A DNA stretch of 64,000 bases from Candidatus Aenigmatarchaeota archaeon (GTDB lineage: Archaea > Aenigmatarchaeota > Aenigmatarchaeia > QMZP01 > QMZT01): positions 45,450-109,449 of the forward strand of contig JAPLVC010000007.1 in NCBI GenBank assembly GCA_026397315.1. Direction: 5' to 3'. Below the pieces are notes generated by a model that saw only the letters and a list, made by a program, of their open reading frames with translations, had not been told where the DNA came from and made no database searches. Shown piece after piece: positions 4,290 through 64,000 of this stretch. Position numbers and translations under genes: made by a program. Each line of letters starts with the position of its first letter. Position 1 is the first letter of the stretch.

Positions 4290-5414
4290 TCACTTTAAGA
4301 ACTTGTCTACCTGTTTCCTCGCGTGCTCCCTCTTCCTTGCGTGCTCGCGCAGAAACGCTTCCATCTTTTCCACGAGAATCTGCTTCAGTTCGCCTGAAAG
4401 CAGCTTGCCGGACTTGTAGTCGTCGTAAATCTGCTGCATCTTCTTGTCGTCGGGCTCGAATTGCGAGTAGAGATACTGGTAGGCGACGTCGATTTCCGGC
4501 ACGCCTCCTTTCTTGCGATGCTCCTCCAGCGTGTCTCGCCCTCCGGAGAAGGCGTATTTCATTATCTTGCTTTTTGCAGTGGCCGGGTCGTCCGTGAGGG
4601 CGATGTAGGAATACGGGTCCGAAGAGCTCATCTTCCCACCCTTGAGGCCCTTGATGAAAACATGATACGTCGACGATGGAAGCACGAAATTGTGCTCCTT
4701 CTCGAAGCGCGCCGCGATGTCCCTGCTTAGGCGTATGTGCGGGTCCTGGTCCGCGCCGACGGGCACGACGACGTGCCTGTAGCCGCCGAATTCAGGCAGC
4801 ATGGGATGGAGGATGTCCGCGACCTGCGTCATGACCGACATTACTTTTCCCGGCGTGATTTCGCCGTAAACGGCCTTCATCTCGTTGAACGTGACCTTCT
4901 TAGCGGCCATGCCGGACAGGCGGTAGAACGCGTTGGCTTTGTCCGGGTCTTTCGAGCGCGCGCTCTGGAAGTAGAAGTCGCAGTTCTTCGGGTCGAGCCC
5001 GAGAGCTATGTAATTGACCAGGTATTCGTTTATCGCGATTTCGCGCAGCTTATCCATGTCGTCTATGCGCATGTTGTATGCCTCGATGTCGGCGACGCAG
5101 ATGAACACCTTCGCTCCGAGCACTTTCTGATGGTAGATTATCTGCTCTGCCAGGATCTTGTGACCGAGATGGAACTTGCCCGAAGGCATAAGCCCCGTGA
5201 GCATGGCGTAACTCTCTTTTCTCGCGAGCGCGTCGAGAATCTTGTCGAAGTCGCGATGGCCGAACACGATGCCTCTTCTCATGAGTAAGTGAGGCTCCTT
5301 CATCCGCTTTAGTAACGGCTCGAACGGCTGGATGCCGAACTCGTCGCGCAGCTTGGCGTAATCCTTCACTTCCATTGATCCCCATGGATTTATTTCAGTT
5401 TTCATTTTCATCAC
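4290..5414 (-). CDS. trpS: Tryptophanyl-tRNA synthetase (archaeal/eukaryotic type)
   Basis: Class I motifs HLGH (GKFHLGHKILAEQ) and KMSSS; archaeal TrpRS-like length (374 aa). Confidence 0.85.
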   Translation of the reverse strand: MMKMKTEINPWGSMEVKDYAKLRDEFGIQPFEPLLKRMKEPHLLMRRGIVFGHRDFDKILDALARKESYAMLTGLMPSGKFHLGHKILAEQIIYHQKVLGAKVFICVADIEAYNMRIDDMDKLREIAINEYLVNYIALGLDPKNCDFYFQSARSKDPDKANAFYRLSGMAAKKVTFNEMKAVYGEITPGKVMSVMTQVADILHPMLPEFGGYRHVVVPVGADQDPHIRLSRDIAARFEKEHNFVLPSSTYHVFIKGLKGGKMSSSDPYSYIALTDDPATAKSKIMKYAFSGGRDTLEEHRKKGGVPEIDVAYQYLYSQFEPDDKKMQQIYDDYKSGKLLSGELKQILVEKMEAFLREHARKREHARKQVDKFLK

Positions 5415-11041: not shown

Positions 11042-12331
11042 CTAGCGCGTCACTTCTAGCTTGTTGACCGCTTCCAAAAGATCTTTGGCCTTCGCGTTCT
11101 TCTCGAAGTGCTGCCTGACCGGTTCTAGCAACTCGTTCAGGCGCAACGCCACTCCCGATTTCAGATCCATGGGGTGAATTTTGCCCTCGGCATATGCTTT
11201 CTCCAGTCCCGCGTAGCTTTCGAAAGACACGTCGCCTCCGAACTTCTCATGCCTTTTGATGTCAAAAGTCTTGAACTTCTCGAAGATTATGAACTTGCAG
11301 TATTCGAGGATCGGGTTTTCTGCAATCTGTTTCTCCGGGCAGTAAGCCTTGGAAATCTTGCGCTTCACTTCCTCCGGCGAATCGGTCATGAATATCGCGG
11401 AATCGGGCTTCGATTTGCTCATCTTCATGTCGATAGCACGTTCAGTCGCACTAATCACATGCTCAATTTTTATAGATCCGGGGAATAATTTATCATATAA
11501 TATTTTGATTTTTGAGCCATCTGGATAATTATACTCACTAATATTTTTTTTAATGAAGAATTTTTGTTTATCTACAACATCTTCCAAAAAGAACTCATCT
11601 GCTTCTCTATAATATTTAAACCTAGATGCTTTGTTGTAAATATCTAAATCTAGACTATATCTTAAACTAACTACAGGTTCTACTAATCCCATCATCATAT
11701 GGTGAGAGACGATGACCGGCTTCCAGTAGCCGAGCTTCGGGCCGATTTCGCGCGCGAGCACGTTGACCTTGCGCTGGTCCAGGCCGAGCTGGCATATGTC
11801 CGCCTTCAGATGAAAAATGTCCGCGGCCTGCATGCACGGGTAGAGAATCTGCGACGCCTGCTGCACGTCCGCGTCTTTCCGTCCCATTATCTGGCCGCAG
11901 CGGACGATTCTGTTGACAGTCGTGTTGCGCGCCACCTGCATGACCTTCTTCCAGTAGTCGTCGTCTTTCACGTGCCCTGAGGCCCAAACGAATTCTACGT
12001 TATCGGCGTCGAGGCCACACGACTTCCAGACCTCTATGAGGTATTTGCCTACCGTCTGTATGTTCTCGAGATTACCGCCCATCTTGTTGTTCGCCCAGCC
12101 GTGCCAGTCGGCAACCAGCATCTTGAACTTGCAGCCGGCGGAAGTCATTTTGTTTATGTTTATCGCCCGCAGTAGGCCCTGCGCTATGTGGACGTGCCCG
12201 CTCGGCTCGAAGCCATCATACGCTATCGGATGCTTTTTCTCCGCGAGCAGCGCCTTCAGCTCCTCAGGAGTGACTATCTCCCCGCCTTCGCCTACCTGCG
12301 AAACCAGCTCGAAGCGCTTTTCGACATCCAT
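11042..12331 (-). CDS. tyrS: Tyrosyl-tRNA synthetase (archaeal type) carrying an ~80-aa in-frame AT-rich insertion
   Basis: Close match to archaeal TyrRS (FEPSG...ADWH...QLGLDQRKVNVLARE...KMSKS...KFGGD...HPMDLK); 429 aa versus about 306-330 aa typical. Confidence 0.85.
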   Translation of the reverse strand: MDVEKRFELVSQVGEGGEIVTPEELKALLAEKKHPIAYDGFEPSGHVHIAQGLLRAININKMTSAGCKFKMLVADWHGWANNKMGGNLENIQTVGKYLIEVWKSCGLDADNVEFVWASGHVKDDDYWKKVMQVARNTTVNRIVRCGQIMGRKDADVQQASQILYPCMQAADIFHLKADICQLGLDQRKVNVLAREIGPKLGYWKPVIVSHHMMMGLVEPVVSLRYSLDLDIYNKASRFKYYREADEFFLEDVVDKQKFFIKKNISEYNYPDGSKIKILYDKLFPGSIKIEHVISATERAIDMKMSKSKPDSAIFMTDSPEEVKRKISKAYCPEKQIAENPILEYCKFIIFEKFKTFDIKRHEKFGGDVSFESYAGLEKAYAEGKIHPMDLKSGVALRLNELLEPVRQHFEKNAKAKDLLEAVNKLEVTR

Positions 12332-15764: not shown

Positions 15765-16241
15765 TTACGAAGGATTCGGCACAATAAGTTCTTCAGAGCC
15801 GAATTGTTCTTCCCCAACAAGGAAATCGTGTGGGAAGTCTCCGCGTGAAATTTTTTTCATCAAATATTCTATGGCGCAGGTTGCATGGGCTTCTGCGAAA
15901 GGCGGGGATTGCATGTCCGGATATTTAATGTTTTTTAAAATGTTTTCGGCAATTTCCCTTTCGTGTTTTTTCACGAAGGGAATCAGTTTTTCCGCATTTT
16001 TCTTGTTGAAACCCAAATCATTTCTTACAGAAAATCCTTGAATCACTTTGACCGTGTGCTCCAAGAGTTTTGATATATAAACAGCGTCTGCCTCATTTTT
16101 AATCAATGGCAGTTCATTGCCTAGAACGAAAAAACTGTAAAAATCAGCGCAAGTGGGCGGGCCTGCATATGCCTTGTTCGAACAAAATGCTATCTTATAT
16201 TTTTCGTTCCATCGGCACAGTTTGCAATAATCTGATAGCAT
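15765..16241 (-). CDS. Hypothetical protein (158 aa)
   Basis: Convergent with the beta-CASP gene; no motif recognised. Confidence 0.4.
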   Translation of the reverse strand: MLSDYCKLCRWNEKYKIAFCSNKAYAGPPTCADFYSFFVLGNELPLIKNEADAVYISKLLEHTVKVIQGFSVRNDLGFNKKNAEKLIPFVKKHEREIAENILKNIKYPDMQSPPFAEAHATCAIEYLMKKISRGDFPHDFLVGEEQFGSEELIVPNPS

Positions 16242-16341
16242 AATTCATCACTTAGTTTACTGTGAAATAGATACGAAATTAACTTTAAATTGACATGGTT
16301 TTGCATCGGGCTATTTAATTTCGAGCGGGCCAATATTAAAC

Positions 16342-17385
16342 ATGATTGTAATTCCTGGTGAGTATGGCAGCGGGTCGGGAACGATAGTCAGGCTCGCAAC
16401 CGCATTTTCTGCGCTAACCGGAAAGCCGATAAAAATAACCGACATACGCGCGAAGCGTCCGAACCCGGGCCTGCGCCACCAGCATATCGAAGCGCTGAGG
16501 GCGATAGCGAAACTGAGCGGCGGAAAATTGAAAGGCGATGAAGTCGGCTCAAAGGAAATAGAGTTCACGCCAAAGAAAGTGAAGGGCGGAACTATTGACG
16601 TGGCGATAGAGACTGCCGGCTCCATAGGCCTGCTTGCTTATGCTGTCATGATTCCAGCTCTTTGCGCTTCCGGGAAAACGATTCTCAGGATAAAGGGCGG
16701 GTCCACCGCTAGTTTATGGGCGCCGCCGGTCTACTACATGGAAAACGTGCTGTTTCCGACGCTCGCGAAGATGGGAATCGACGCGAAATTCACCATAAAC
16801 ATGCATGGTTTTTTCCCCAAAGGCGGAGCAGACGTCGTGTTCGAGATAAGCCCCGCGAAGAAAGTCGCTCCCATAGTCATGAAGGAAGCCGGAGACGTCG
16901 AAACGATAACAGGCTTATCTATCGCATCGAATGACCTGAAATCCAGGAACGTAGCCGAACGGCAAATCGCCGGCTACCGCAGGATAATAAGGAAGGAGAA
17001 AGGCGTCGACATAAAACCGTTATACGTTAACGCCGCTTCGACCGGCTCGGCTTTCGTTGTCTGGGCCAAAACGACGACCGGATGCATTCTGTCGGGAGAC
17101 CACGTGGGCGAAGAGAAGAAGCCTGCCGAAGTCGCCGGAGAAGAAGCGGCATTCAAGCTGAAAGAAGAGATGGATTACAAATCGACCGTGGGCTTCCAGC
17201 TCGCGGACCAGCTCATTCCCTTCATGGCGCTCGCGTCCGGCAAATCAGAAATTCTCGTGCCGGAGCTTACGGATCACGTGAAGACGAACATATGGCTTTG
17301 CGAAAAGTTCCTCGGCTCGAAATTCGTCACCAAAGAGAACGGCGAGAATTTCAGGGTTTCCTGTTCCGGCCGCGCGTCAAAATAA
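16342..17385 (+). CDS. rtcA: RNA 3'-terminal phosphate cyclase
   Basis: N-terminus GEYGSGSGTIVRLATAFSALTGKPIKITDIRAKRPNPGLRHQHIEALRA matches the RtcA family. Confidence 0.8.
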   Translation: MIVIPGEYGSGSGTIVRLATAFSALTGKPIKITDIRAKRPNPGLRHQHIEALRAIAKLSGGKLKGDEVGSKEIEFTPKKVKGGTIDVAIETAGSIGLLAYAVMIPALCASGKTILRIKGGSTASLWAPPVYYMENVLFPTLAKMGIDAKFTINMHGFFPKGGADVVFEISPAKKVAPIVMKEAGDVETITGLSIASNDLKSRNVAERQIAGYRRIIRKEKGVDIKPLYVNAASTGSAFVVWAKTTTGCILSGDHVGEEKKPAEVAGEEAAFKLKEEMDYKSTVGFQLADQLIPFMALASGKSEILVPELTDHVKTNIWLCEKFLGSKFVTKENGENFRVSCSGRASK

Positions 17386-19617: not shown

Positions 19618-19728
19618 TGGACTCGTCGGGATTTGAACCCGAGGCCTCTTGGATGCGAACCAAGCGCTCTCTAGCGACTGAAGCAGGCGAACCTGCTTCC
19701 ATCGAAATTACCACTGAGCTACGAGCCC
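19618..19728 (-). tRNA. tRNA-Ala (anticodon CGC) with a 39-nt intron at a non-canonical position in the D-loop
   Basis: Minus-strand read: GGGCTCG-TA-GCTC-AGTGGTA-[intron ATTTCGATGGAAGCAGGTTCGCCTGCTTCAGTCGCTAGA]-GAGC-G-CTTGG-TTCGCAT-CCAAG-AGGCC-TCGGG-TTCAAAT-CCCGA-CGAGTCC-A. The G3:U70 Ala identity pair is present and there is no encoded CCA. The intron forms an 8-bp hairpin with a TTCG tetraloop. Confidence 0.75.
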
Positions 19729-19771: not shown

Positions 19772-20137
19772 ATGCCCGTTTTCGTAGTCCACGAGCATAA
19801 CGCTTCGCGCCTCCACTGGGACCTCCGCCTGGAGATGGACGGCGTGCTGAAATCGTGGGCCGTTCCGAAGGAGCCGCCGTTGGAAGCGAATGTCAAACGC
19901 CTCGCGATACAGGTGGATGACCACGCTCTTTCTTATGGGAAATTCGAAGGTGTCATTAAAGAAGGGTATGGTGCCGGCACCGTGAAAATCTGGGATAATG
20001 GAACGTATGAAATCGTGGACAAGAAACCTGATAAAATCGTTTTCAAGATTAGCGGCAGGAAGATGCGCGGGGAATACGTCCTGCTGAAATTCAAAAAAGC
20101 CGACGAAAAGGAATGGCTGCTTTTCAGGAAAGAATGA
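19772..20137 (+). CDS. LigD N-terminal domain (3'-phosphoesterase-like) stand-alone protein
   Basis: ASRLHWDLRLEMDGVLKSWAVPKEP...DHALSYGKFEG...GYGAGTVKIWDNGTY matches the LigD_N domain consensus. Confidence 0.6.
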   Translation: MPVFVVHEHNASRLHWDLRLEMDGVLKSWAVPKEPPLEANVKRLAIQVDDHALSYGKFEGVIKEGYGAGTVKIWDNGTYEIVDKKPDKIVFKISGRKMRGEYVLLKFKKADEKEWLLFRKE

Positions 20138-20183
20138 CAAAGTTGGTAAATACTTTTTCTAAAAATATCTGTTTTTAAAAAAA

Positions 20184-20648
20184 TTGATTGACTACATGTT
20201 TAAACATAGGTTATTATTACTACAATTCCAGAAATCATTAATGACCAAGATAATTTATCTCGACACCAACATCTATCTAGATTATTATTTTGATAGACAT
20301 GGATCTAAAAGAGCATTTGATATAATATTTTTTCGAGCACCAAATTGTGAATTCAAAATAGTTGTTTCAGATTGGGTTCTGCGAGAACTTGAACTTAATG
20401 GAATTGGTTCAAAAGAAATGAAAACACTTTTCAGTAGAATTTCTGAAAATAAAAAATTGGTTACAATTTTTACAGAAAAACCAAAGGACATAGACGATGC
20501 GAAAAAAATATCATCGGATCATTTTCAAGATCCATTACATGTGATTCTCGCTAAGAAGGGTGGCGCTGAAATATTAATAACAAGAAATGTACAAGATTTC
20601 AACTGTTGTAGGCATCTTTTAGATATCAAGTTTCCTGAAGATATTTGA
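20184..20648 (+). CDS. PIN-domain-like putative nuclease
   Basis: N-terminal IIYLDTNI and C-terminal AEILITRNVQDF resemble PIN signatures; AT-rich. Confidence 0.45.
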   Translation: MIDYMFKHRLLLLQFQKSLMTKIIYLDTNIYLDYYFDRHGSKRAFDIIFFRAPNCEFKIVVSDWVLRELELNGIGSKEMKTLFSRISENKKLVTIFTEKPKDIDDAKKISSDHFQDPLHVILAKKGGAEILITRNVQDFNCCRHLLDIKFPEDI

Positions 20649-21791
20649 TGTATCTTCCTTCGCAAATTCTTCAGCTATTTTTCTTCTTTCATCTTTCGTA
20701 GTCTTCTTCTCTTCAATTATTTTCATCAAAGTCCTGTATTTTTCAAATTCTTTAAACTCAGTTTCTTTCAATTCATCAACTTTGCACAGATCTCTCAAAT
20801 AAGAAACGTATTCAATCGCTAACCTTTCATTTATTATGAAATAAATATCAAGATATGATTTGAGCGTGTTTTTGTCATAACCAATTTTTAAAAGACTTTC
20901 AAAAAGATTATATGTGGTTATCATATCCCACACAATTCGCATAGTGTCTAGTATTTCTGTCCTCAATTCGTTTATTTCATCAGATTTCATAGTTTTTAGC
21001 ATGTAAATTGTAGTTGAAATAAAATCATTCAATATCTTTGCAGCATTTTCAGTTTCCTCATTTAATTTAAAATTAAATCCAATCTCCATTAGAATATCTC
21101 TTATTTTCAATTTGTTTTCATCATTTAATTCAATAATACCAAAATTTTTCTCAAATTCAAACTGTCTGAGATAGAGTAAATTTTTAGATTTTATATATTG
21201 TCCCTTTCTCATATACACCGAATTGTGATCTTTTTCTTTCTCAACTATTCTATTTATGCATTCGTTTATCTCACTCTCATTTTTAACGGACGTGTAACTA
21301 TAATCCTTTGTTGGGTCATATAATTTTAAGCAAAGTTCACCGAACCTGTACCAAACTAATGGTACATCTAGATTACATTCCTGTACTATATCTACAAGTA
21401 ATTTTTGAACTTGTGTTTTGTTAGGATAATAAGTCGTCTTCTCTTTCCAAGTTTCTCTAATTTTCATAAAAAGGAAATTTACTAAATTATCTTGTTCCGA
21501 CTTAATCGGTATTCCGAAAAGCGTTCCTGAATTTTTTTCGGGAGAACTTGTGCAAGATTTCAAAGTGAAAACTCTTTTGTTTCCTTCTGCTCTCTCAACA
21601 GCGATTCCGGATTCTTCTAGCATCTCCAAATATTTGCGCACACTATCCCATGTCGTTCCGGTTTCGCCGGCAACTTCATAAATAGATTTGGGGCCTTTTT
21701 TCAGGGATTCGATGACAGATTGAACAACTTCGCGGCTGGTCTTCTTGGCACTACCCCTGCCAGTTGTCATGTTAATAATATTGGTAACCAT
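20619..21791 (-). CDS. Hypothetical 390-aa protein with N-terminal winged HTH and long helical C-terminal region
   Basis: wHTH segment KSIYEVAGETGTTWDSVRKYLEMLEESGIAVERAEGNKRVFTL; the remainder is K/E/I/N-rich with no known motif; convergent with the PIN-like gene, overlapping it by 30 nt. Confidence 0.45.
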   Translation of the reverse strand: MVTNIINMTTGRGSAKKTSREVVQSVIESLKKGPKSIYEVAGETGTTWDSVRKYLEMLEESGIAVERAEGNKRVFTLKSCTSSPEKNSGTLFGIPIKSEQDNLVNFLFMKIRETWKEKTTYYPNKTQVQKLLVDIVQECNLDVPLVWYRFGELCLKLYDPTKDYSYTSVKNESEINECINRIVEKEKDHNSVYMRKGQYIKSKNLLYLRQFEFEKNFGIIELNDENKLKIRDILMEIGFNFKLNEETENAAKILNDFISTTIYMLKTMKSDEINELRTEILDTMRIVWDMITTYNLFESLLKIGYDKNTLKSYLDIYFIINERLAIEYVSYLRDLCKVDELKETEFKEFEKYRTLMKIIEEKKTTKDERRKIAEEFAKEDTSNIFRKLDI

Positions 21792-21907
21792 ATTTAAATA
21801 TCACCATATCAGCATAGACTAATTTTAAATAAGTAGAATGAATAAAAGCTTTATATACTTAATTGCAAATACTATATAGTTATTTGAGTATAGTAATGGA
21901 GGTAAAA

Positions 21908-22180
21908 ATGAGAAGAATCGTTAAAAGAGTAGTGGATGGCGATACTTTGGAAGTTAATCGTAATATAAATGGGACTAGATTTGTAAGACTCGCCAATGTA
22001 AACGCACCCGAAAGGCATCAATTTGGTGGAAGAACAGCGACAAAAACATTAACCGGCCTTGTAGGCGGTAGATCGATAACACTAACTCCTGTAGCAAGGG
22101 ACGTTTATGGAAGAGTAGTCGCCGAAGTCAGATGTGGAAGACAAAGTATCAATCGTAAAATGAAGAAAAGAGGATATTAA
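21908..22180 (+). CDS. Short thermonuclease (SNase)-like protein
   Basis: VVDGDTLEV...VRLANVNAPE resembles the SNase catalytic core (DGDT...R...D.PE); GGAGGT RBS precedes the internal ATG of ORF 21863..22180. Confidence 0.5.
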   Translation: MRRIVKRVVDGDTLEVNRNINGTRFVRLANVNAPERHQFGGRTATKTLTGLVGGRSITLTPVARDVYGRVVAEVRCGRQSINRKMKKRGY

Positions 22181-22202
22181 AAATATATCAAGGGAGGAAA
22201 TC

Positions 22203-22355
22203 ATGATAAAAATAATCGCTATAGCAACAGGACTCGCAGCTGTACTTGGACTTGGTAGCATTCTTCTTTCAAGTCTAGGCAATAATACTTGGCCTGTATT
22301 TTTGTTTGCAGCAATATTTGTTTTTTTAATCGGTATACTCGTTAAAAAAATATAA
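22203..22355 (+). CDS. 50-aa membrane peptide (MIKIIAIATGLAAVLGLGSILLSSLGNNTWPVFLFAAIFVFLIGILVKKI)
   Basis: Manual translation; GGGAGGA RBS 6 nt upstream; two hydrophobic helices; below the ORF-track cutoff. Confidence 0.35.
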   Translation: MIKIIAIATGLAAVLGLGSILLSSLGNNTWPVFLFAAIFVFLIGILVKKI

Positions 22356-22440
22356 TAAGATAAAAAACACCCATTGAAAAACATTTTGTTAGATTTGATA
22401 ATTAAATCGTATTTTAACCAGAACGACAAAATATTTTCTT

Positions 22441-22977
22441 ATGATTGACATTTACACGCTCGTCGAGGCCGTGTGGATTCTGTGGCCGGCGTACGGGGCG
22501 AACGGCCTGTGCATGCTCGCGCATGGGAAGCGGGTCATCGATGGCGGACGCATGTGGCGCGGCAAACAGATTTTTGGCCCGGGCAAGACATGGGAAGGTC
22601 TGCTGTTCGGCGTGTTCGTTGGCGCGCTCGTCGGGACGATTCAGATGCTCGCTTACCCGTTCCTGCCATGGGAGCTTTCCCCGGTCGCGCTTTCGCTGGT
22701 CCCCATGACGCCGCTCACGGGCGCGCTCATAGGCCTGGGCGCGCTGCTCGGCGACATAGGCGGCTCGTTCATAAAGCGACGCCTGGGCATCGCGCGAGGC
22801 AAACCAGCGCCAATCCTGGACCAGCTCGATTTCATAGCGGGAATGCTGATTGTGCTGGCGTTCGTGTATCCGCTGAAATGGGAATGGGTCGTGATATTGG
22901 CGATAATGACGCCGGTCTTCCACCTGCTGGCGAACAGGATAGCCTACATACTGAAGCTCAAGAACGTGCCTTATTAG
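22441..22977 (+). CDS. carS: CDP-archaeol synthase
   Basis: DUF46/CarS-like signature ANGLCMLAHGKRVIDGG...GPGKTWEGLLFG in a 178-aa membrane protein. Confidence 0.7.
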   Translation: MIDIYTLVEAVWILWPAYGANGLCMLAHGKRVIDGGRMWRGKQIFGPGKTWEGLLFGVFVGALVGTIQMLAYPFLPWELSPVALSLVPMTPLTGALIGLGALLGDIGGSFIKRRLGIARGKPAPILDQLDFIAGMLIVLAFVYPLKWEWVVILAIMTPVFHLLANRIAYILKLKNVPY

Positions 22978-23217: not shown

Positions 23218-23651
23218 CCATCGATTGCATTCTTAACCTACCGACGTGCTTTAGAGGTGATCTCATTCGCGCCATACAGAAGCTTAACAAGCGCAGGTTT
23301 CGTGCGGTGAGTTATAGTCCAGACACCACATTAATGGCTGAGCGCCTGACAGAGGCCTATATGGACACATCCTTTTCAGGACAACCGAAATGTCCTGTCA
23401 GCAGAGATAATTATATGATGTGATATATATATTTATCTGACTACTTATTGGTCAATAAAACACAACGCATTTAAAGTAAAAAACGATATGCATCGACCAA
23501 TAAATTCCGGCTAATAGCGATTTTTTATTTTTCCAAAATATATAATCCAAAAGTTAAATTCGTTATAAACACATAATAGCGCTTCCTGTTTAAATATTTA
23601 TGCGTTATTCAATTTGTTTTTTAACCACGATTGTAAAATATTATTGTCTTT

Positions 23652-24248
23652 ATGCAGGGGAAGTTCATCGTCTTTGAGGGAATCGATAAGTCGGGCAAGC
23701 ACACGCAATCGCGCATGCTCTTCGAATACCTGCGCAGACGCGGAGAGCGGGTGATGTATACTGAAGAGCCGACTGCGGACAACCCCGCCGGGCGCGCTAT
23801 AAAGGATTGGTTGGCAGGAAAGTTCGAGCTGAAGAGCGGCGAGGCGATAACGCTTTTGTATACTGCTGACAGATACGAACATCTTAAACAAACGATACTG
23901 CCGTCGCTGGAAAAAGGCATGACGGTGATTTCGGACCGATACTTCTATTCGACAATCGCCTACGAGTCGGCGATATTCAACGTCGACCCGAAATGGATAC
24001 GCGAGCTGCACGAGAAGGCACGCAGGCCGGACGTCGTGATATTCATCGACATCGCGCCGGAGATATCGCTCAAGCGGCGACGCGCCCGCCCGGACGACAG
24101 GCTGGAGAAGGTCGAACTTCTTACTAAGGTCAGGGAAGCATACAAGAAGATGATGGATGAAGAGCGTTTCTTCACCGTCGACGGGAACCGGACGAAAGAG
24201 GACGTCTTTGCCGACGTGAAAAAAATCATCGACAGAATTTTGGCCTGA
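23652..24248 (+). CDS. tmk: Thymidylate kinase
   Basis: P-loop FEGIDKSGKHTQ, DRY motif; 198 aa. Confidence 0.8.
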   Translation: MQGKFIVFEGIDKSGKHTQSRMLFEYLRRRGERVMYTEEPTADNPAGRAIKDWLAGKFELKSGEAITLLYTADRYEHLKQTILPSLEKGMTVISDRYFYSTIAYESAIFNVDPKWIRELHEKARRPDVVIFIDIAPEISLKRRRARPDDRLEKVELLTKVREAYKKMMDEERFFTVDGNRTKEDVFADVKKIIDRILA

Positions 24249-32870: not shown

Positions 32871-34175
<1,305 letters not shown>

Positions 34176-34288
34176 AAAGTAGTTTTTGTTCTTTTCATTT
34201 CATTAAATCACGATACTATCGCAATATTATCCGGTGTATCCCGAATAAAATCTGAGTGTATTAAATAGGATGCTGACAATATTTAATC

Positions 34289-34594
34289 ATGAAAATGTTC
34301 GTTTCGATATTTTTTGCTATTTTTGTCATTTTGGTGGTGTCATCATCAGGATGCATTAATTCTGCGTATGAAGGTACATTACTGTATCAGAAAGCGGACG
34401 CCAACAAATGTGAAGCGTATTACATAGTAATCAAAGAAAAGCCATATGAGATAAACACAACTTTGGTTGGTGATTTGGATGATTATGTCAACAAGAGTGT
34501 TAGGATCAGGGGTGAATTGATTACTCGCACAGCGCTGAAAAAATGCTTATTTGAAACCACGATTAACGCAGCTGATATTCAGCTTATTGATTAA
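34289..34594 (+). CDS. Hypothetical small secreted/lipoprotein-like protein
   Basis: Signal-peptide-like N-terminus ending SSSGC; AT-rich. Confidence 0.35.
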   Translation: MKMFVSIFFAIFVILVVSSSGCINSAYEGTLLYQKADANKCEAYYIVIKEKPYEINTTLVGDLDDYVNKSVRIRGELITRTALKKCLFETTINAADIQLID

Positions 34595-34669: not shown

Positions 34670-36595
34670 TCATTTACTTTCTTTATGCTTGTTTATTGCT
34701 ATGCGCAACTCGCTCATTACGACCGTGGTGTCTATCTTGCCGCGGACCTGCTGCATGACCAGGCCGAGAAGAATCTTTTCCCCGCGCTCGTCGCCGATCA
34801 GCTCGCTGTTTTTGTCAAGCGTCTTGATGATAATGAGTTTCAGATCTTCGATAGTCAGTTCGATTATCTTCGTCTTGCGGATCGCCTGCTCTGCCGATAA
34901 TTCCGGCTCTTTCGCAATCGCTTTCAGCACGTCTGGAATCGCTTCCTTCGCCAGTTTGCCATCCTTCAACTTATTTAATATTTCCGAGAAATGGTGCTCT
35001 TCGAGCTTCTCGACAGCGACACCGCTTCTTTTTAGATACGGTAGTGTAGAAATCAAAATTGTAGAAACTATTTTTGGGTCATAACCATCATCTATAAGTT
35101 TCTCGAAAAGTTTATGCTTACCAGATTTTATAATTTGTTTTAATATCTCGTCGCTTATCTTTAGTTTTTTGACTGATGCACCATCTTTAATCTGTAGTTT
35201 TTCTGTTAGATTCAACGTTATCCTTTTGCCTTTATCCTCTAAAAGTTCCGGTAGATTTTTTCTTATCGCGGCCAGCCTGGCGTGCGTTATCCTTATGGGC
35301 GGCACGTCGGTTTCCGGGTAAAGTCTCGCCGCTCCGGGCAGCGGGCGCATGTATTCCGTCTCGCCTGTGTCGAGCGCTTTCCTCACTTCCGTCGGAACGC
35401 CGACAACGAGCTGGTTTATGCGCTCTGCGACAATAGCCATTGTCTTCTCGACTGCTTTTTCCTCACCAACCGCTATTATCAGAGTGTCTCCATGGCCGGC
35501 TTTCATTTCATGCCTCAGCTTCTCGAAATCCTTCGTTAGTTTATACTTCTCCAGCTCTTCGTCGCTGTGGATTATGCCTTTCATTTCCGATTTCGCCCTC
35601 ACGTAATTGGCTACTTCATTGCCCAGCGTGCGTGTAGGCGTAATCTGCCTTTTCAAATAACCAGCGAAATCAGGGACGAGTATCGCGTACGTGGTCTTGT
35701 CTTTCGTTATCTTGGACTCTGAATCCTTGAAAATATGGGATACATGAACGACTTTCGGCTTGACTGGTTTGAAGCCTGCCTTATGCAGATCCTTCTTTAT
35801 CTCAATCAGACTCGCCTGCCTGAGCGCCTCGTTCTCAACGAATTTAGGAATCATGCGCAGCTCCTGCGCGCCCTTTATCTCCACTCGCGCGCCGCCCTCT
35901 ATCGATACGTTTACGTCTTGGCGGATCGTGCCGAGGCCGCGCTTCACCTTTTCAGTCGAGCGGACTATCATGCCCAGCATCTCAGCGACCTCGCGCGCTT
36001 GTTCCGGCGTGCGTATGTCGGGCGACGTCCCAATCTCGACGAGCGGGATGCCAAGCCTGTCGAGGCCGTAGAACACGCGATTTCCATCGCGCCCCATTAT
36101 CTGGCAGCTTTCCTCCTCAAGGCAGATGTTCTCGATGCCCACTTCACCGAAGCTCGTCTTCATCTTGCCGCGGAGTCCGGCGACCGACGTCCGCTGGAAG
36201 CCGGAAGTGTTCGAACCGTCGAGGACCGTTTTTCTCATCACGTGTATTTCCTCAGGCACTTCGCATTTCAGCATCTCGGCCACGGTAAGGACGATATCTA
36301 ACGCTTCCGAATTCATGTTGCCCGGAGGCTCCTCGTCCAGCTCGATAAGGCAGGACTCTTCGGGATAAACCCGGTAGACGAATTCGACCCCTTTCGCGAC
36401 CTCTCCCAGCGCGGCGATGTCTATCTCGCCCGTTTCACCGGCGACGACGCGCAGCTTGCGCGCTACCTCCAGCGACGGCTTCGCTTCGGAGAAGCGCGAC
36501 CTGCACATGCAGAACAGCTTGTGTTGAGTCTCGAGCTGTTGGTGAATCTCGATGCCGCATTTCAGCCCGAGCTTTGAATAATCGAGTTCACTCAT
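34670..36595 (-). CDS. gatE: Glutamyl-tRNA(Gln) amidotransferase subunit E
   Basis: Archaeal GatE N-terminus (GLKCGIEIHQQL), 641 aa; overlaps gatD by 8 nt. Confidence 0.85.
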   Translation of the reverse strand: MSELDYSKLGLKCGIEIHQQLETQHKLFCMCRSRFSEAKPSLEVARKLRVVAGETGEIDIAALGEVAKGVEFVYRVYPEESCLIELDEEPPGNMNSEALDIVLTVAEMLKCEVPEEIHVMRKTVLDGSNTSGFQRTSVAGLRGKMKTSFGEVGIENICLEEESCQIMGRDGNRVFYGLDRLGIPLVEIGTSPDIRTPEQAREVAEMLGMIVRSTEKVKRGLGTIRQDVNVSIEGGARVEIKGAQELRMIPKFVENEALRQASLIEIKKDLHKAGFKPVKPKVVHVSHIFKDSESKITKDKTTYAILVPDFAGYLKRQITPTRTLGNEVANYVRAKSEMKGIIHSDEELEKYKLTKDFEKLRHEMKAGHGDTLIIAVGEEKAVEKTMAIVAERINQLVVGVPTEVRKALDTGETEYMRPLPGAARLYPETDVPPIRITHARLAAIRKNLPELLEDKGKRITLNLTEKLQIKDGASVKKLKISDEILKQIIKSGKHKLFEKLIDDGYDPKIVSTILISTLPYLKRSGVAVEKLEEHHFSEILNKLKDGKLAKEAIPDVLKAIAKEPELSAEQAIRKTKIIELTIEDLKLIIIKTLDKNSELIGDERGEKILLGLVMQQVRGKIDTTVVMSELRIAINKHKESK

Positions 36596-38010: not shown

Positions 38011-38886
38011 TCACAGAGGACGCGCCGCTTTTAGATCTCTATAATGGTTTACATAGCCTTCTCTGCCGCCTAAAGTGGAACGTTCTGCCGCTTGAATTGC
38101 CTCCCTGTATTTTCCCATATCAGATAGACAAAGTGAAAGACGATAAAACGCTGGCATGTTCAAATCATCCAATTCCGTTGCTTTTTTGAAAAACCTGGCG
38201 GCCGTTTTATAATTTTTTTTATTGTCCCAATAAACGCCTACTTTAAAATAGATGTTTGCCAGAAGCTGGTCGTTGCTCAGCGGCAAGTCAAAAATTCCAT
38301 TCGAAAGTTCTTTTTGCGTATATTCATTTACGTCTTTAGTTGGCGCACCAAAAAATCCGCCGTTTGATTGAAAATTAAATTGATTTCCGTCTTTGTCAAT
38401 ATATCTCACGTAAAAATGTGATTCACTTTTACCTCTACATCTGACACCATACAACCACATGCCTTCAATGTCGGCAAGATCGAGATAAAGATACGAAGAT
38501 GTATCGCAATCGAGAGCGTTTTTTTTAAACCCTTCGGAAAGCATAAGGATATCCGCATCATCCGGGTTGAAAACGAAATTGAATGGTTTATCTTTCAGTA
38601 TGTTGTATATGACGGGTAGGTTTTCTGGCCCTATATCCGGCTTGTATTTCTCATGAAAAACTTTTCTGAGCCTGTGCAGCTTTTCAACCGCTCCATGATA
38701 GTCAAAGTCATAATCTGTGCATGTTCGCTCAATGTAAAGCGTTTTCTCGCCAAAACCGTTTAAATTATTCAAGAAGGAGTCATTCATGACCGATGCCCTA
38801 TCGCCGCGTGTGCTGAGCATGTCAAATCCCAAAGCAGCTCCGCCCGCCAGCTTCAATGCGGTCCCTATGAAATTTCTCCTTTTCAT
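38011..38886 (-). CDS. TAT-signal secreted protein with C-terminal TPR-like region, paralog A
   Basis: Twin-arginine motif MKRRNFIGTALKLAGGAALG at the internal Met; shares the SEGF..LDCDTSS.LYLD.ADIE core and TPR-like tail with the adjacent paralog. Confidence 0.5.
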   Translation of the reverse strand: MKRRNFIGTALKLAGGAALGFDMLSTRGDRASVMNDSFLNNLNGFGEKTLYIERTCTDYDFDYHGAVEKLHRLRKVFHEKYKPDIGPENLPVIYNILKDKPFNFVFNPDDADILMLSEGFKKNALDCDTSSYLYLDLADIEGMWLYGVRCRGKSESHFYVRYIDKDGNQFNFQSNGGFFGAPTKDVNEYTQKELSNGIFDLPLSNDQLLANIYFKVGVYWDNKKNYKTAARFFKKATELDDLNMPAFYRLSLCLSDMGKYREAIQAAERSTLGGREGYVNHYRDLKAARPL

Positions 38887-38945
38887 CGAGAATACGATTG
38901 CGGCAAGTCTTTTAACCGGTGATTGTACTGTAAAAATTGCCTTAT
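38850..38945. repeat. Tandem duplication: 5' leader and signal-peptide region of paralog A is about 85% identical to 39815..39910 of paralog B
   Basis: gaaatttctccttttcatcgagaatacgattgcggcaagtcttttaac compared with gaaatttctcctattcatcgaaaatacggttgcggcaagttttttaac. Confidence 0.6.
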
Positions 38946-39850
38946 CTGGGGCCGTAAGCCATATTAGCGATGCGATACAGTCGGATGTAATTTTTGACAA
39001 ATTCTGGTCTGCGTCCAAGCGTGGATTTGGCCGCGGCTTCAAGGGCTTCACCATATTCCTCTGCATTTTCCAAAGACACGGAAAGCATGAAATGCGCGTT
39101 CACGTTTCTTCTATCCAATTCTGCCGCTTTTTTGAAAAACCCGGCGGCCTTCCTGTAGCATTCCGTGTTGCCAAAGCCCGCCCAGTTCAAACCTATGTTA
39201 TAGTAAATCTCAGAAACGCATTCCCGCCTGCTCAGCGTTCTTCGATAAACGCCGCATTTCACTTCTTTTTTCGCGGGCGAATTCATTTCCGCTTTTGTCG
39301 GCGAACCGGGCGGTCCCGCCCATCCAAAATATCCCCGATTGGATTGATAGTCTTCATATCCGCCGCCGTAATTAATCCATCTTATGTGAAAATGCTGCCC
39401 TTTGGTGCCTCTCGTTTTCACGCCAAAAACGGGCATGTGTTCGATATCGGCGACGTCAAGGTACAAAAAGCTGCTGGTATCGCAATCGAGCATCCCTTTT
39501 TCAAAACCTTCGCTCAGAAGAAGCACTCCATCTTCACTACCGTTGAAAACAAAGCTGAAAGGCTTTTCCCGGAGGGTCCTGTAAATCGTGTGGAGGTTTT
39601 TCGAACCGATGTGCGGGTCATACCTCTTGTGTATGACGTCTCTGAATCTTGACAGTTTATCCATTGCAGCATCGAAAACGAACTCACGCGGCGTGTTTCG
39701 TTTTTCAAGGGCAATTGCGTTCTCCGCGAACCCTTTCGCGCCGCTCTCATAAATGCCGGTTTCTGCATCGCGGCCGTAGCTTCCTATGGAAGGGAGCGCT
39801 AAAGACGCGGCGGCTAAAGCCACATCTTTTATGAAATTTCTCCTATTCAT
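38942..39850 (-). CDS. TAT-signal secreted protein with C-terminal TPR-like region, paralog B
   Basis: MNRRNFIKDVALAAASLALP twin-arginine signal; paralog of 38011..38886. Confidence 0.55.
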   Translation of the reverse strand: MNRRNFIKDVALAAASLALPSIGSYGRDAETGIYESGAKGFAENAIALEKRNTPREFVFDAAMDKLSRFRDVIHKRYDPHIGSKNLHTIYRTLREKPFSFVFNGSEDGVLLLSEGFEKGMLDCDTSSFLYLDVADIEHMPVFGVKTRGTKGQHFHIRWINYGGGYEDYQSNRGYFGWAGPPGSPTKAEMNSPAKKEVKCGVYRRTLSRRECVSEIYYNIGLNWAGFGNTECYRKAAGFFKKAAELDRRNVNAHFMLSVSLENAEEYGEALEAAAKSTLGRRPEFVKNYIRLYRIANMAYGPR

Positions 39851-44908: not shown

Positions 44909-45109
44909 ATGCCAGTAAAAAAATATCAGGGTCAGGATGTTGCAAAACCCGTGGAAATGAATCCTTACCTTTCGCCTGCACCTGGTTGCATGACACAAAT
45001 ATCCAATTACTTAGCGGAAAATATTTCTGGCGGATGGCCGCCAAAGACGAAAATACAAACAAATATGCAAGAAATTCAGACAGAAACAGTAGAAACAATT
45101 GCGCCGTGA
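44909..45109 (+). CDS. Hypothetical small protein (66 aa)
   Basis: GAGGAGGA RBS; N-terminus MPVK like the preceding ORF. Confidence 0.3.
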   Translation: MPVKKYQGQDVAKPVEMNPYLSPAPGCMTQISNYLAENISGGWPPKTKIQTNMQEIQTETVETIAP

Positions 45110-45143
45110 CGTAATTAGGATCTAAAAAAGAGGTGGATGTAAT

Positions 45144-45389
45144 ATGAGTAATGAGAAAGTCACTGTTCAAAAAATATTAAATTATCTTAAAATGAAAGGT
45201 TATAACCCAGAAAAGTGTTACATGGGAGTTCATCCCCAAATTGGTGGAGTTGTTTGTGAGGCAGACGCTACAATAATAGCAACTCTAAGTGAAATAGAAG
45301 CATCGCCTGAAAAAACATTTAAATCCAAAGGCCTCTCCGCATCAGGACAACTGGAAGGCGGACAACCACACGATGTCATAGGCTGTTAA
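45144..45389 (+). CDS. Hypothetical small protein (81 aa)
   Basis: AGAGGTGGA RBS; 4-nt convergent overlap with the kae1 stop. Confidence 0.35.
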   Translation: MSNEKVTVQKILNYLKMKGYNPEKCYMGVHPQIGGVVCEADATIIATLSEIEASPEKTFKSKGLSASGQLEGGQPHDVIGC

Positions 45390-50655: not shown

Positions 50656-51054
50656 TTTTAGCTGTAGATATCTTTTAAATTATTTTACTCGTTAAAAGTG
50701 AAGATGGGAAGAAATAACAACAGGATGTTTGTAAACAACGTTCCTAAACCAGAGGAACCACGTGCTACTGAATCCCCAGATTCGCATACATAGCGGGTTA
50801 GAGTGGCCCATAAAGGAATAGGCAGAGCATTGGCGGAACAGACTAATGGTGAGTATAATCCCGGAGATAACACGGTTACAACCGGTTATATAACCAAAGA
50901 AAAGATGCAACTTCTCAATAAGTATTACGGACCTGAAATAAGAAAATACAAGTTACAGATGTGATTGTTTTCAAATTATCGGAAAATTAATTTTTAAAAG
51001 ACAAAAACAATTTGGAATTATGTATAATAATTATTTGTGAGCGGGAGGGTTAAC

Positions 51055-51669
51055 ATGACTGTCAAGATTGGTGTGATTGGGTCGACGAAGGGAACGGACA
51101 TGCAGGCGGTAATAGACGCTATCGCCCGCAAGCAGCTGGACGCGAAAATCGTCTGCGTCCTTTCGAACAAGGAGGACGCATATATTCTCGAGCGGGCGAA
51201 GGACAACGGCATAGACTCGATATTCCTCGACTACGAGGGCGACAAGCGCGTCCTGTTCGATAAGGCGGCGGCGCATGAGTTTGACCAGCGCGGCGTCGAA
51301 CTCATCCTGCTCATCGGTTACATGAAAATACTTTCGCCGTGGTTCTGCACCCACTACGAGAACAGGATAATGAACATCCATCCGTCGCTTCTCCCGCTGT
51401 TCTCGGGGGGCAAGGATGTCAATATTCATGAGGAAGTGCTCAAGCTCGGCCTCAAGGTCACCGGGTGCACGCTGCACTTCGTTACGCCGGAAGTCGACCA
51501 CGGGCCGATAATAATGCAGTTGCCCGTGCCAGTCGAGGATATCGACACGCCCGAGTCGCTCAAGGGGAAAGTGCAGGCGGCCGAGCAGGCAGTCATACTC
51601 GAGGCGATAAGGCTTTACGGCGAAGGCAAGATCAAGGTCGAGGGGAATAAAGTGAGGCTTTTAAAATGA
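51055..51669 (+). CDS. purN: Phosphoribosylglycinamide formyltransferase
   Basis: PurN fold; GGGAGGG RBS before the ATG at 51055. Confidence 0.85.
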   Translation: MTVKIGVIGSTKGTDMQAVIDAIARKQLDAKIVCVLSNKEDAYILERAKDNGIDSIFLDYEGDKRVLFDKAAAHEFDQRGVELILLIGYMKILSPWFCTHYENRIMNIHPSLLPLFSGGKDVNIHEEVLKLGLKVTGCTLHFVTPEVDHGPIIMQLPVPVEDIDTPESLKGKVQAAEQAVILEAIRLYGEGKIKVEGNKVRLLK

Positions 51670-53247: not shown

Positions 53248-54576
53248 TTAAAAAAGTTCTTCACAGAAAGCGTTTACTGCTTCTTTCATGTCTGGCTGTT
53301 TCACGTAAAGGTTTATGGCAGGTCCCGCCACGTCGACCTGGGAGGATATGACTATGTTTATGCCTCTTTTGCCGAGTATTCCGGTGAGAAAAGACGTCGT
53401 CCCGGGAATGTCTTTCATCGCATCTCCCGTAAGGCCGATGCCTCCTAATGTTCTGGAACTCACTTCTGGCTCGTGGCCCAGTTTTTCCAGGTGGTTCTTC
53501 AACAGTGCGGCATAATCATCTTCATGGCCTCCGTGGTTTTGCATCACGACGCAAAGCTCGTTGGCAGGCATGACAGTCTCGAATGTGCTGTTGTCGCCCT
53601 CGTCAAGTTCATCTATTATCTTGCGGTAATAGCTCCTTATGTTGCTGTCCCGCACGTCTATGAGCAAAAAGTTGCCTGCTGAAATGACAGCGACAGGATG
53701 CTCTCGGGTGGTCCCGGATTCACTGGAAATGACAGTCGATCCGTCGTTTTCCATGCTTTTGACAACTATCATGAGGCCGGCATTCTTCGATATCTCCACT
53801 GCTTTCGGATGGATGACTTTCGCTCCTCTCCATGTTATCTGGCCCGCCTCGCCGTAGCTCAGCTTGGGAACAATATCGGTCTTGCAGAATTCCGGCTCGA
53901 CCCTGTATATGCCGGGAACCTCTTTTATTATTTCGTACCTTTGCGCGCCAAGCGCGCGGGAAACCAGCGCGCCCGTGATGTCAGTGCTGTTGCGTCCCAT
54001 GAGCTTGTATTTGCCGTTGTCGACGTGGCTTCCCACGTAGCCTCCGACTATCCTGACTGACTTGGATTTACGCGCGAGGTTTTTATTTATCCGCTGGATA
54101 GAAGCATTCACGAGTGGAAGGCCGTTGAAATTGACGCACACGCCCGCTTCGCAGCCGTCCGTGTAGGAGGCACAAATCCCTCTCAAACCAAGCGCATGGC
54201 GGAGCAGGATGCCGGAATGGTTTTCCCCAAGCGCAAGGAACCTGTCGTAATCGCGCTCTGCTAGAATGCCTTCCATGAGCGAAAGCTCCTTCTCAATTTC
54301 TTTAACTGCCAGTTTTCTTTCCATCCCATCGGCAACATTCTCTAATATTTGATTGTAATTTGCATGAAGTTCTCCCTTTAGGTCGCCGATTTTCCTCCTG
54401 CCGTCCATTGAATCGATGAGAAGGTTGCTGACACCAGACGGAGCAGAAACGACCGCCACGGGCGAATAGCCGTCGTTTATCTGGCGGGATAAGTATTCAG
54501 CGGCGCTGGTGAAGCCATGGTAATCTTTGAAAGCGGAACCGCCGAACTTGTCGCAAACGACATTTGGCCTTGGCAT
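53248..54576 (-). CDS. Aspartate kinase-like amino-acid kinase with C-terminal ACT domains
   Basis: KFGGS N-terminal motif, amino-acid-kinase fold, tandem ACT-like C-terminus. Confidence 0.6.
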   Translation of the reverse strand: MPRPNVVCDKFGGSAFKDYHGFTSAAEYLSRQINDGYSPVAVVSAPSGVSNLLIDSMDGRRKIGDLKGELHANYNQILENVADGMERKLAVKEIEKELSLMEGILAERDYDRFLALGENHSGILLRHALGLRGICASYTDGCEAGVCVNFNGLPLVNASIQRINKNLARKSKSVRIVGGYVGSHVDNGKYKLMGRNSTDITGALVSRALGAQRYEIIKEVPGIYRVEPEFCKTDIVPKLSYGEAGQITWRGAKVIHPKAVEISKNAGLMIVVKSMENDGSTVISSESGTTREHPVAVISAGNFLLIDVRDSNIRSYYRKIIDELDEGDNSTFETVMPANELCVVMQNHGGHEDDYAALLKNHLEKLGHEPEVSSRTLGGIGLTGDAMKDIPGTTSFLTGILGKRGINIVISSQVDVAGPAINLYVKQPDMKEAVNAFCEELF

Positions 54577-54729
54577 TTTATATGCTTATAGAGAATATTA
54601 TTTAAGTATTTTTATAACTGATGGTTATACTTATTTCTTATCATAAATATGTCAAGAAGGAGTAACCGCTTCGACTTCACCGGCACGTGTATGTTCAAGC
54701 ATTAAAAACGCGGCGCGATTATTTCTCTT

Positions 54730-63226: not shown

Positions 63227-63655
63227 ATGAAAGTTCTTATAATTTGCGGCAGCGAATCCGACCTTGAAATCGCCAGGAAGGCGGAGGACATACTCAAGAA
63301 GAACAAGATTGCCTTCGATATCCGCGTCTCGTCCGCCCACCGCGATCCGGAGGGAACCAGAAAGATCGTTAAGTCGACCGACGCGGACGTCATAATCGCC
63401 GTAGCCGGCCTTGCGGCCGCGTTACCAGGGTTTGTCGCGTCGATGACACATAAGCCCGTGATAGGCGTGCCTGTCGGAGTCAAGCTCGGTGGTCTCGACG
63501 CACTGCTTTCCATGATGCAGATGCCGTCGGGCGTGCCAGTCGCGACGGTTTCCATAGACGGTGGTAAAAATGCTGCAATATTAGCTATGGAAATATTGGC
63601 TCTAAAGGATGAAAATATCAGAAAGAAACTTATAAAATATAGAAGATTGAAATGA
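63227..63655 (+). CDS. purE: N5-carboxyaminoimidazole ribonucleotide mutase
   Basis: PurE fold (MKVLIICGSESD...SAHR...VIIAVAG...PVIGVP); the ORF track starts at a TTG at 63200, but the ATG at 63227 is more likely. Confidence 0.8.
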   Translation: MKVLIICGSESDLEIARKAEDILKKNKIAFDIRVSSAHRDPEGTRKIVKSTDADVIIAVAGLAAALPGFVASMTHKPVIGVPVGVKLGGLDALLSMMQMPSGVPVATVSIDGGKNAAILAMEILALKDENIRKKLIKYRRLK

Positions 63656-64000
63656 TAGATGAAAAAACTTTACAAGAATGGACCGAATTATATAATATCG
63701 GTTGGGGTTCATACAAAATTGCTAAGAAATATGGCATTTCTATTCCTACCGTGCAAAAATATTTAAGAAAAGTTGGTATATTTAATGGGATTAGGACGCG
63801 AGACGCACGTATCAAAAATTTTGATAGTATGGCCAAAGAGAAGAATTGTATTGTGATAAAAGGTGATATATCTGACAATGAAAAAAGATGTGATCTGAGA
63901 TTTTCTCTCGGAAATCTTGACGGGGTGAAAATTGTTCCCAGATTTGATAAAGGATTTAAAAAAGTCCTTTTAATACCCAACAAAAATGGCCGCAAACTAT
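63652..64000 (+). CDS. Hypothetical HTH-containing protein, AT-rich, 3'-truncated by window edge
   Basis: Manual translation MIDEKTLQEWTELYNIGWGSYKIAKKYGISIPTVQKYLRKVG...; ATGA overlap with the purE stop; not in the ORF track on this strand. Confidence 0.4.
   Translation, partial: MIDEKTLQEWTELYNIGWGSYKIAKKYGISIPTVQKYLRKVGIFNGIRTRDARIKNFDSMAKEKNCIVIKGDISDNEKRCDLRFSLGNLDGVKIVPRFDKGFKKVLLIPNKNGRKL

Follow-up and report, generated by a model that had tools for sequence, protein, structure and literature searches.

The stretch of DNA considered here (the window) comprises 64,000 nucleotides of contig JAPLVC010000007.1 (positions 45,450 to 109,449, forward strand; assembly GCA_026397315.1) from a Candidatus Aenigmatarchaeota archaeon. 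On its minus strand lies tyrS, the gene for tyrosyl-tRNA synthetase (TyrRS), which contains an AT-rich coding tract directly before the codons of the KMSKS catalytic signature. A preliminary description of this DNA, made by a model from the letters alone, had singled out the same part of the gene as an insertion. The features on which the analysis rests are as follows.

11042..12331, minus strand: the tyrS open reading frame (ORF), encoding a DPANN/eukaryote-like TyrRS of 429 residues (ORF list, PF00579 profile, structure alignment)
11684..11704, minus strand: the HHMMMGL strand that ends the Rossmann fold, with the 5' junction of the tract at G215/L216
11435..11686, minus strand: the AT-rich replacement tract, codons L216-A299 (84 codons, 252 nt), delimited by DNA alignment with the nearest relative (contig L002) and by the G+C content of third codon positions (GC3)
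11444..11683, minus strand: the segment of the preliminary description, 80 codons (V217-T296) whose frame is open at 27% GC
11456..11620, minus strand: the core of a predicted all-beta module (residues about 238-292), where the prediction for the insert is best
11411..11425, minus strand: the KMSKS catalytic signature, K303-S307, invariant columns four codons past the 3' junction

Judged from profile and structure alignments, the product of 11042..12331 is an archaeal/eukaryotic-type TyrRS. It matches the class Ic synthetase profile PF00579 (tRNA-synt_1b) with 169.5 bits, the cut-off being 21.1 (E=1.4e-49). The insert breaks this match into two stretches. A protein search returns thousands of homologues. 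The protein is identical to a GenBank entry from a 166-kb contig, 'MAG: tyrosine--tRNA ligase [Candidatus Aenigmarchaeota archaeon]' (MAG, metagenome-assembled genome). Solved TyrRS structures align with it at E=2.6e-108: residues 3-217 and 302-428 are matched to chains 8zmi and 7sc6 (also 3vgj), in which 3 chain residues lie between the aligned blocks, as against 84 unmatched residues in the window TyrRS. The enzyme is thus alignable end to end except for the segment before KMSKS, as the preliminary description had it. Its further claim that orthologs have about four residues at this place is near the 3 residues of the solved structures and fails for close orthologues; the closest homologues are DPANN TyrRS of ~358 aa, with ~15 residues between the HHM.MGL strand and KMSKS. 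On both sides the flanks are rigidly conserved, H210, H211, M212, G215 and L216 as well as K303, M304, S305, K306 and S307 being invariant in TyrRS alignments. The 64-kb window holds no second tyrS copy. Its only similar gene is a class Ic paralogue at 4290..5414 (minus strand), probably a tryptophanyl-tRNA synthetase (TrpRS), which is 27% identical to the TyrRS backbone, has a uniformly high GC3 (0.77) and lacks the insert; therefore, inserts of this kind are not general to the class Ic synthetases of this genome.

The tract departs sharply in composition from its surroundings. The whole window has 50% GC, and its genuine genes have a GC3 of about 0.6-0.8. Within tyrS, 120-nt windows have a GC of 0.58-0.62, which gives way to 0.23-0.28 from about 11440 to 11690. 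For L216-T296 (81 codons, the segment of the preliminary description plus one codon), GC is 0.267, with values of 0.37/0.23/0.20 at codon positions 1/2/3, compared with 0.546 and 0.56/0.33/0.75 for the remainder of the gene. Both borders are sharp: codons ending in G or C drop from 9 in 10 (codons 201-210) to none in 10 (221-230) at the 5' side and rise from 3 in 10 (291-300) to 8 in 10 (301-310) at the 3' side. When the 80-codon segment was shuffled by mononucleotide, the frame stayed open in 22 of 100,000 cases, and the remaining five frames of the actual segment contain 3-15 stops. These values bear out two earlier assertions, namely that an AT-rich segment interrupts a GC-rich gene and that an open frame at such a composition is improbable by chance.

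The compositional shift is not confined to residues without a counterpart in other TyrRS. At its edges, the tract encodes LVEPVVS, comparable to the loop consensus GLxxPxxx, and ATERA, comparable to xERxIDM. In these TyrRS-homologous codons, GC3 is 1/12 where 0.75 is expected (binomial P=2e-6), and codons with host-like GC3 return exactly at I300. Therefore, the AT-richness extends beyond the novel residues, and the backbone of any donor tyrS would itself have been AT-rich. AT-ending edge codons would be expected if an AT-rich allele had supplied the tract by gene conversion, and the tract forms a discrete block of differing composition and ancestry with native sequence on both sides.

Comparison with close relatives shows how the tract relates to the ancestral gene. 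The nearest relative, P0002, is encoded on contig L002, which is labelled Aenigmatarchaeia, is syntenic with the window and has a neighbouring deoxyhypusine-synthase (DS) gene in common with the window. Outside the tract, P0002 and the window TyrRS are 94.8% identical in amino acids and 87.7% in nucleotides, with proportions of synonymous and nonsynonymous differences (pS and pN) of 0.46 and 0.033. The flanking DNA is well conserved up to ...ATGATGATGGGA and again from ATCGACATGAA..., and the sequence between is unalignable. Here L002 has 45 nt, or 15 codons (LLAPSASEEDKMERI), against 252 nt, or 84 codons, in the window. The L002 loop is consensus-like and host-like in GC3 (0.71), and similar loops are found in P0004 and P0005, the next-closest relatives, which also lack the insert. 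As 15 codons were exchanged for 84, the event is a replacement with a net gain of 69 codons and no clean insertion of 80; of the inserted segment of about 80 residues described earlier, the existence of extra sequence stands and the size has to be corrected. Because L002, P0004 and P0005 are insert-free, the short loop is ancestral in the clade and the tract was gained by the window lineage. The same segment at normal composition was looked for in close relatives, where it would have marked an ordinary lineage-specific loop, and was not found, P0002, P0004 and P0005 all being insert-free.

A homologous insert does occur at the same site in a distant TyrRS. P0036 (434 aa) is encoded on a contig of 60% GC (L001/L003, 'Candidatus Woesearchaeota archaeon isolate clean1619'), and its insert is 48% identical to that of the window over 75 residues without a gap. 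Motifs common to both are LR[YF]SLDLD, FKYY, LED, EY.YP[DE]GS and FP.S. The two proteins, window TyrRS and P0036, are the only known members of the insert family. Outside the insert, P0036 is only 64.5% identical to the window TyrRS, a closeness exceeded by dozens of TyrRS that lack an insert. The phylogenetic signals of the two parts are accordingly incongruent, the backbone lying nearest the insert-less P0002, P0004 and P0005 and the insert having its only relative in P0036. The preliminary description had offered a lineage-specific insertion domain as one explanation; a translated insertion module beside KMSKS is indeed present, and the qualifier lineage-specific has to be dropped, with a homologue in P0036 and none in the closest relatives. 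In P0036 the insert is also AT-shifted, with a GC3 of 0.47 versus 0.90 in the remainder of the gene. The divergence of the two inserts (pN 0.345, pS 0.83) far exceeds that of the window and L002 backbones (pN 0.345 versus 0.033). The insert family is thus older than the split between the window and L002 lineages, and the tract would therefore have entered the window lineage horizontally, from another tyrS allele.

The same pair of sequences indicates at which level the insert is constrained. Nucleotide identity between the two inserts is 0.63, 0.65 and 0.38 at codon positions 1, 2 and 3. Positions 1 and 2 are conserved far above position 3; therefore, the insert evolves as a protein under purifying selection, and it is therefore no intron, intein, repeat element or RNA. 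This result bears on the proposal that the segment is removed after transcription or translation, as a bulge-helix-bulge (BHB) intron or a degenerate mini-intein, so that the mature enzyme lacks it. Such a proposal draws on the interruption of an essential gene at a highly conserved site with the frame kept open, as is often seen with inteins and introns. Besides the codon-position pattern, several searches speak against it. A BHB intron is marked at its exon-intron junctions by a pair of 3-nt bulges with a 4-bp helix between them, and the frame is restored when it is excised; 5 relaxed candidates were found versus 5.6 +/- 2.8 in shuffled sequences, their lengths leaving a remainder of 1 or 2 on division by three, so that none preserves the frame. 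Inteins begin with Cys or Ser, end in His-Asn followed by Cys, Ser or Thr, and have a minimal size of about 130 aa. The insert (69-84 aa, roughly 70-80 aa) contains no Cys and no His-Asn and is too short, and its exclusion as an intein in the preliminary description was correct. A structured RNA was likewise rejected, as there was no Rfam match at E<=1 and no significant fold (z=-1.0 versus shuffled sequences). Post-transcriptional or post-translational removal is hardly credible on this evidence.

The loop before KMSKS has received extra residues more than once. Five of the aligned proteins carry them there: the window TyrRS, P0036, P0042, P0024 and P0081. Elsewhere in the aligned set, no internal insert exceeds about 4 residues (N-terminal extensions, which may be start-codon calls, excepted). 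P0042 has a different insert of ~76 aa in the same loop and was recovered from two independent samples (L004, 1359..2663, and L005). P0024 (L006, 3001..4500) has another, of ~140 aa; the gene order on L006 (beta-CASP, DS, 115-aa ORF, tyrS) is that of L002, and the window has at least the DS, 114-aa ORF and tyrS part of it. In P0081, the insert is only 17 aa long. A common origin of the P0042 and P0024 inserts with the window/P0036 family was rejected, no similarity being detected by hhalign (probability <1%; the P0081 insert was left out of this comparison), and no insert at this loop has a convincing Pfam or PHROG family match. Since unrelated inserts occupy one loop, this loop is a hot spot for insertions among DPANN TyrRS. 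Compared with the genes that carry them, the P0042 and P0024 inserts are AT-shifted (GC3 0.18 versus 0.53 and 0.285 versus 0.66, respectively), and the P0081 insert is at native composition in an AT-rich host (GC3 0.25 versus 0.305).

Such recurrence raises the question of mobility. The tract could be a selfish in-frame cassette, either resembling the Rickettsia palindromic elements (RPEs) and MITEs (miniature transposable elements with inverted repeats) or homing without splicing to the pre-KMSKS site, with machinery of its own or of a partner. At least three unrelated inserts at one site, one insert family in two distant hosts and the foreign composition of the tract are all compatible with this, and Rickettsia provides known cases of MITEs inserted in frame (PMC10969869). 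Also, ~1.2 kb upstream of the insert-bearing tyrS of L001 lies a gene for an IS200-like Y1 transposase (97 aa; L001 2258..2551, minus strand), with no link to the insert found. Conversely, blastn and tblastn returned no second DNA or peptide copy in the 64-kb window or the loci compared with it, on which ground a repeat or MITE was rejected. The tract has no terminal inverted repeats or subterminal hairpins. A target-site duplication is likewise missing, the sole flanking direct repeat, GATTAGT (7 nt, at a spacing of 232, not a multiple of 3), occurring at chance rate; the folding score given above is unremarkable. Moreover, the loop was replaced together with its homologous edge codons instead of being cleanly interrupted, no endonuclease gene is adjacent, and very large databases contain only two members of the family. 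A selfish cassette is thus improbable. The variable region of a diversity-generating retroelement was also considered; it would have a nearby template repeat about 80-90% identical to it, and it was rejected because blastn of the tract against the window gave nothing above chance.

A broader version of the idea regards the pre-KMSKS loop of DPANN TyrRS as a dedicated cassette site, at which unrelated, non-splicing in-frame modules are swapped horizontally among alleles by a homing-like or otherwise targeted mechanism. Were this so, the modules might be kept by diversifying selection, for example by evading a host-, virus- or toxin-encoded antagonist of the TyrRS active-site region, and the AT-richness would be the signature of the cassettes' own mobile gene pool. 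This remains a speculative suggestion with a poor chance of being right.

As the sequence comes from a MAG and both junctions lie within invariant motifs, the tract could also be an assembly artifact, in which tyrS reads of a co-occurring AT-rich relative were joined to the native gene at the conserved motifs. An independent Logan assembly, on the other hand, has the same sequence, with 0 mismatches over 3290 nt. Assembler k-mers are longer than the about 11-15 nt of sequence that the junctions may share, and a chimera needs two switches within 252 nt. The homologous insert of P0036 comes from an unrelated MAG of another study, and assemblies of two different samples both contain the P0042-type insert at this site. 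A chimera is consequently very unlikely.

In structural terms, the insert lies in the surface loop that follows HHMMMGL, the last strand of the Rossmann fold, and precedes the KMSKS loop, and it would form a translated module of ~70 residues. A full-length AlphaFold2 model is confident for the backbone, most 10-residue blocks outside the insert averaging a predicted local distance difference test score (pLDDT) above 85. Modelled alone with its single homologue, the insert gave seven beta-strands, a mean pLDDT of 71.6 and a predicted TM score (pTM) of 0.59, residues 17-71 scoring 72-85. This prediction suggests an autonomous small all-beta module. No significant profile or fold match to the insert itself was obtained among Pfam, PHROGs and PDB folds. 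With 13 basic and 13 acidic residues, its charge is neutral; therefore, it does not resemble a basic tRNA-binding appendage. The KMSKS loop of class I synthetases is a mobile element in amino-acid activation, and the insert sits at its N-terminal hinge. It might conceivably modulate the enzyme or serve in docking. The simplest view would make it a functionally neutral, tolerated passenger at the periphery, selected to stay foldable and harmless.

Taken together, these observations are best accounted for by a translated module without known relatives outside its two-member family, which an unsampled AT-rich tyrS allele would have passed on by gene conversion, at a loop where inserts have been accepted repeatedly; the probability of this account is put at roughly 0.6. 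The module would not have been inherited vertically and would have been gained after the split from the nearest sampled relative (L002). An AT-rich tyrS allele that already bore the module would have supplied the 84-codon tract, displacing the native 15-codon loop. The transfer probably proceeded by homologous recombination, with crossovers in the two invariant flanking motifs (...ATGATGATGGGA on one side and ATCGACATGAA... on the other). Translated with the enzyme and under purifying selection, the module would most likely persist as a tolerated appendage where the KMSKS loop has its permissive hinge. TyrRS genes of the DPANN type are documented to have been transferred laterally (PMC5370408), and homologous recombination within DPANN populations is documented as well (PMC5905446).

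Several observations weigh against this account. When AlphaFold2 modelled the full-length protein, confidence in the insert was low (block means 34-71 pLDDT). The sequence shared at the junctions is short, about 11-15 nt. All four long inserts are AT-shifted relative to their hosts, which may be an intrinsic property instead of a donor signature. Finally, an AT-rich donor carrying the insert at native composition was not found in the protein, GTDB, JGI or IMG/VR collections, several of these searches being ill-suited to a 75-aa query. The recombination patch from an AT-rich donor that the preliminary description had proposed gains a replacement tract and AT-ending homologous edge codons (1/12 GC3), and no donor from the collections searched. 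The two explanations of that description are borne out in part, and in combination.

The individual searches were uneven. A profile of the insert returned nothing from 5.8 billion clustered proteins, in a search that appears to favour candidates of similar length and missed even the query's own protein. Insert plus flanks, a query poorly suited to the search, retrieved only short TyrRS fragments, none with the insert. When 1.84 billion representatives were scanned in full with HMMER, the outcome was four weak matches in multiple stretches of very large proteins, which were judged compositional. Among GTDB species genomes, the L001 contig was the only return for the insert. JGI metagenomes gave nothing with automatic patterns and 75 chance matches, 0 of them TyrRS, with a custom degenerate pattern; IMG/VR contained no match to the insert. 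Giant-virus TyrRS were examined as donors and rejected, as their pre-KMSKS loop has 3-4 residues and their inserts lie at another site. In two such genes on IMG/VR contigs (L095, 1501..2643; L096, 1501..2829), inserts of 40-100 aa, apparently helical and partly repeated, lie between IMGRK..D and LAASQIFYP, and the pre-KMSKS loop has 4 residues.

The missing donor and the shared AT shift lend themselves to a different explanation, in which the insert is a resident accessory segment that is polymorphic for its presence, is weakly constrained and drifts toward an AT-biased mutational equilibrium. Such a segment would escape the forces that maintain a high GC3 in the gene's core (codon or accuracy selection, or GC-biased gene conversion), and its patchy distribution would reflect repeated loss or allele exchange. 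The four long inserts, from three unrelated families, all have a GC3 0.35-0.55 below that of their own genes, and insert and host values rise loosely together (0.18/0.53, 0.285/0.66, 0.20/0.75 and 0.47/0.90). Poorly conserved ORFs of the window are also lower in GC3 (0.38-0.46), and a higher AT content than in core DNA is general for accessory coding DNA (PMC5303225). Against intrinsic drift, the insert-less loop is the consensus in all closest relatives, and the tract was gained by the window lineage, the insert family being much older than that gain. The GC3 step is also abrupt and takes in codons whose residues have counterparts in the ancestral loop. For GC3 to stand at 0.20 after a long stay in a host of 0.75, the local effect would, furthermore, have to be unusually strong, and the sample is of only four inserts. 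Intrinsic AT-richness is therefore rather unlikely as the main cause.

The acquisition proposed here can be explained in outline as a variant of known phenomena, i.e., a sub-genic horizontal gain of a module by a core enzyme. Aminoacyl-tRNA synthetases (aaRS) are known to carry idiosyncratic insertions and appended modules, for example in trypanosomatids and Plasmodium. Like these, the window insert is a translated polypeptide in a surface loop of a canonical class I synthetase whose catalytic motifs are intact and whose backbone is alignable end to end. Unlike them, it lies directly before KMSKS, where solved TyrRS have 3 residues, it is sporadic instead of clade-wide and foreign in composition, and it shares its site with other inserts, at least three of the inserts there being unrelated. 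Mosaic genes that arise by intragenic recombination with diverged alleles, such as the penicillin-binding-protein genes of Neisseria and Streptococcus, offer a second parallel: a short internal block of differing composition or ancestry, native flanks and breakpoints in conserved stretches. Here, however, the block brings a length difference of 69 codons, the donor differs by ~0.5 in GC3, and the donor was not found. Inteins and BHB introns similarly interrupt essential genes at conserved sites with the reading frame maintained, but the window insert has no splicing motifs or BHB, is too small and is under selection at the protein level. A further comparison is provided by the Rickettsia palindromic elements and MITEs, which are also short, AT-rich, in-frame additions to housekeeping enzymes, apparently tolerated on the surface (PMC10969869). 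The window tract differs from the palindromic elements in having no palindrome, terminal repeats, other copies or presence in unrelated genes, and in replacing homologous loop codons. Neither this insert nor any insertion ahead of KMSKS in TyrRS turned up in a literature search.

From these results, it appears that mosaicism can reach, even beside the catalytic loop, an enzyme of translation that is universally conserved and single-copy, here in a DPANN archaeon. The hinge before KMSKS is a permissive site that has been used repeatedly, which is potentially useful for engineering, TyrRS being a workhorse of genetic-code expansion. If acquired as proposed, the tract would represent sub-genic horizontal transfer between lineages ~0.5 apart in GC3 and would serve as a marker for an unsampled AT-rich donor lineage. 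The case also advises caution with phylogenies built from aaRS genes of MAGs.

Other parts of the window also show local AT-richness. A patch of low GC3 occurs at codons ~441-530 (about 35006..35275) of gatE (34670..36595, minus strand), which encodes the 641-aa subunit E of Glu-tRNA(Gln) amidotransferase; in this patch 1-4 of every 10 codons end in G or C versus 6-10 of 10 in most other blocks. Besides residues that align to the Methanothermobacter thermautotrophicus GatE structure (2d6f), the patch takes in an insertion of 15 aa, LNLTEKLQIKDGASV. An AT-rich relative may have contributed this patch too by gene conversion, so that a second gene of translation would be affected. An AT-rich island at 20066..22494 (GC 0.21-0.31, GC3 0.23-0.33), ~400 nt from tRNA-Ala(CGC) (19619..19693, minus strand), is probably integrated foreign DNA. 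Both the gatE patch and the island would fit an influx of AT-rich DNA into this genome. The island contains the following ORFs.

20184..20648, plus strand: PIN-domain protein
20619..21791, minus strand: DUF7342-like protein
22082..22429, minus strand: unassigned ORF

A tetratricopeptide-repeat (TPR) ORF at 38011..39066 (minus strand) has an overall GC3 of 0.43, with low-GC3 stretches at codons 200-262 and 305-347. Eight short, strongly AT-rich stretches (16166-16366, 23355-23703, 34155-34398, 45038-45263, 50840-51096, 54509-54739, 57102-57289 and 63538-63991) are mostly intergenic and reach a minimum GC of 0.23-0.31 in 150-nt windows, versus a coding GC3 of ~0.7; the last of them overlaps a low-GC3 ORF (63630..63995). 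In a compact genome, such stretches presumably serve as promoters or terminators.

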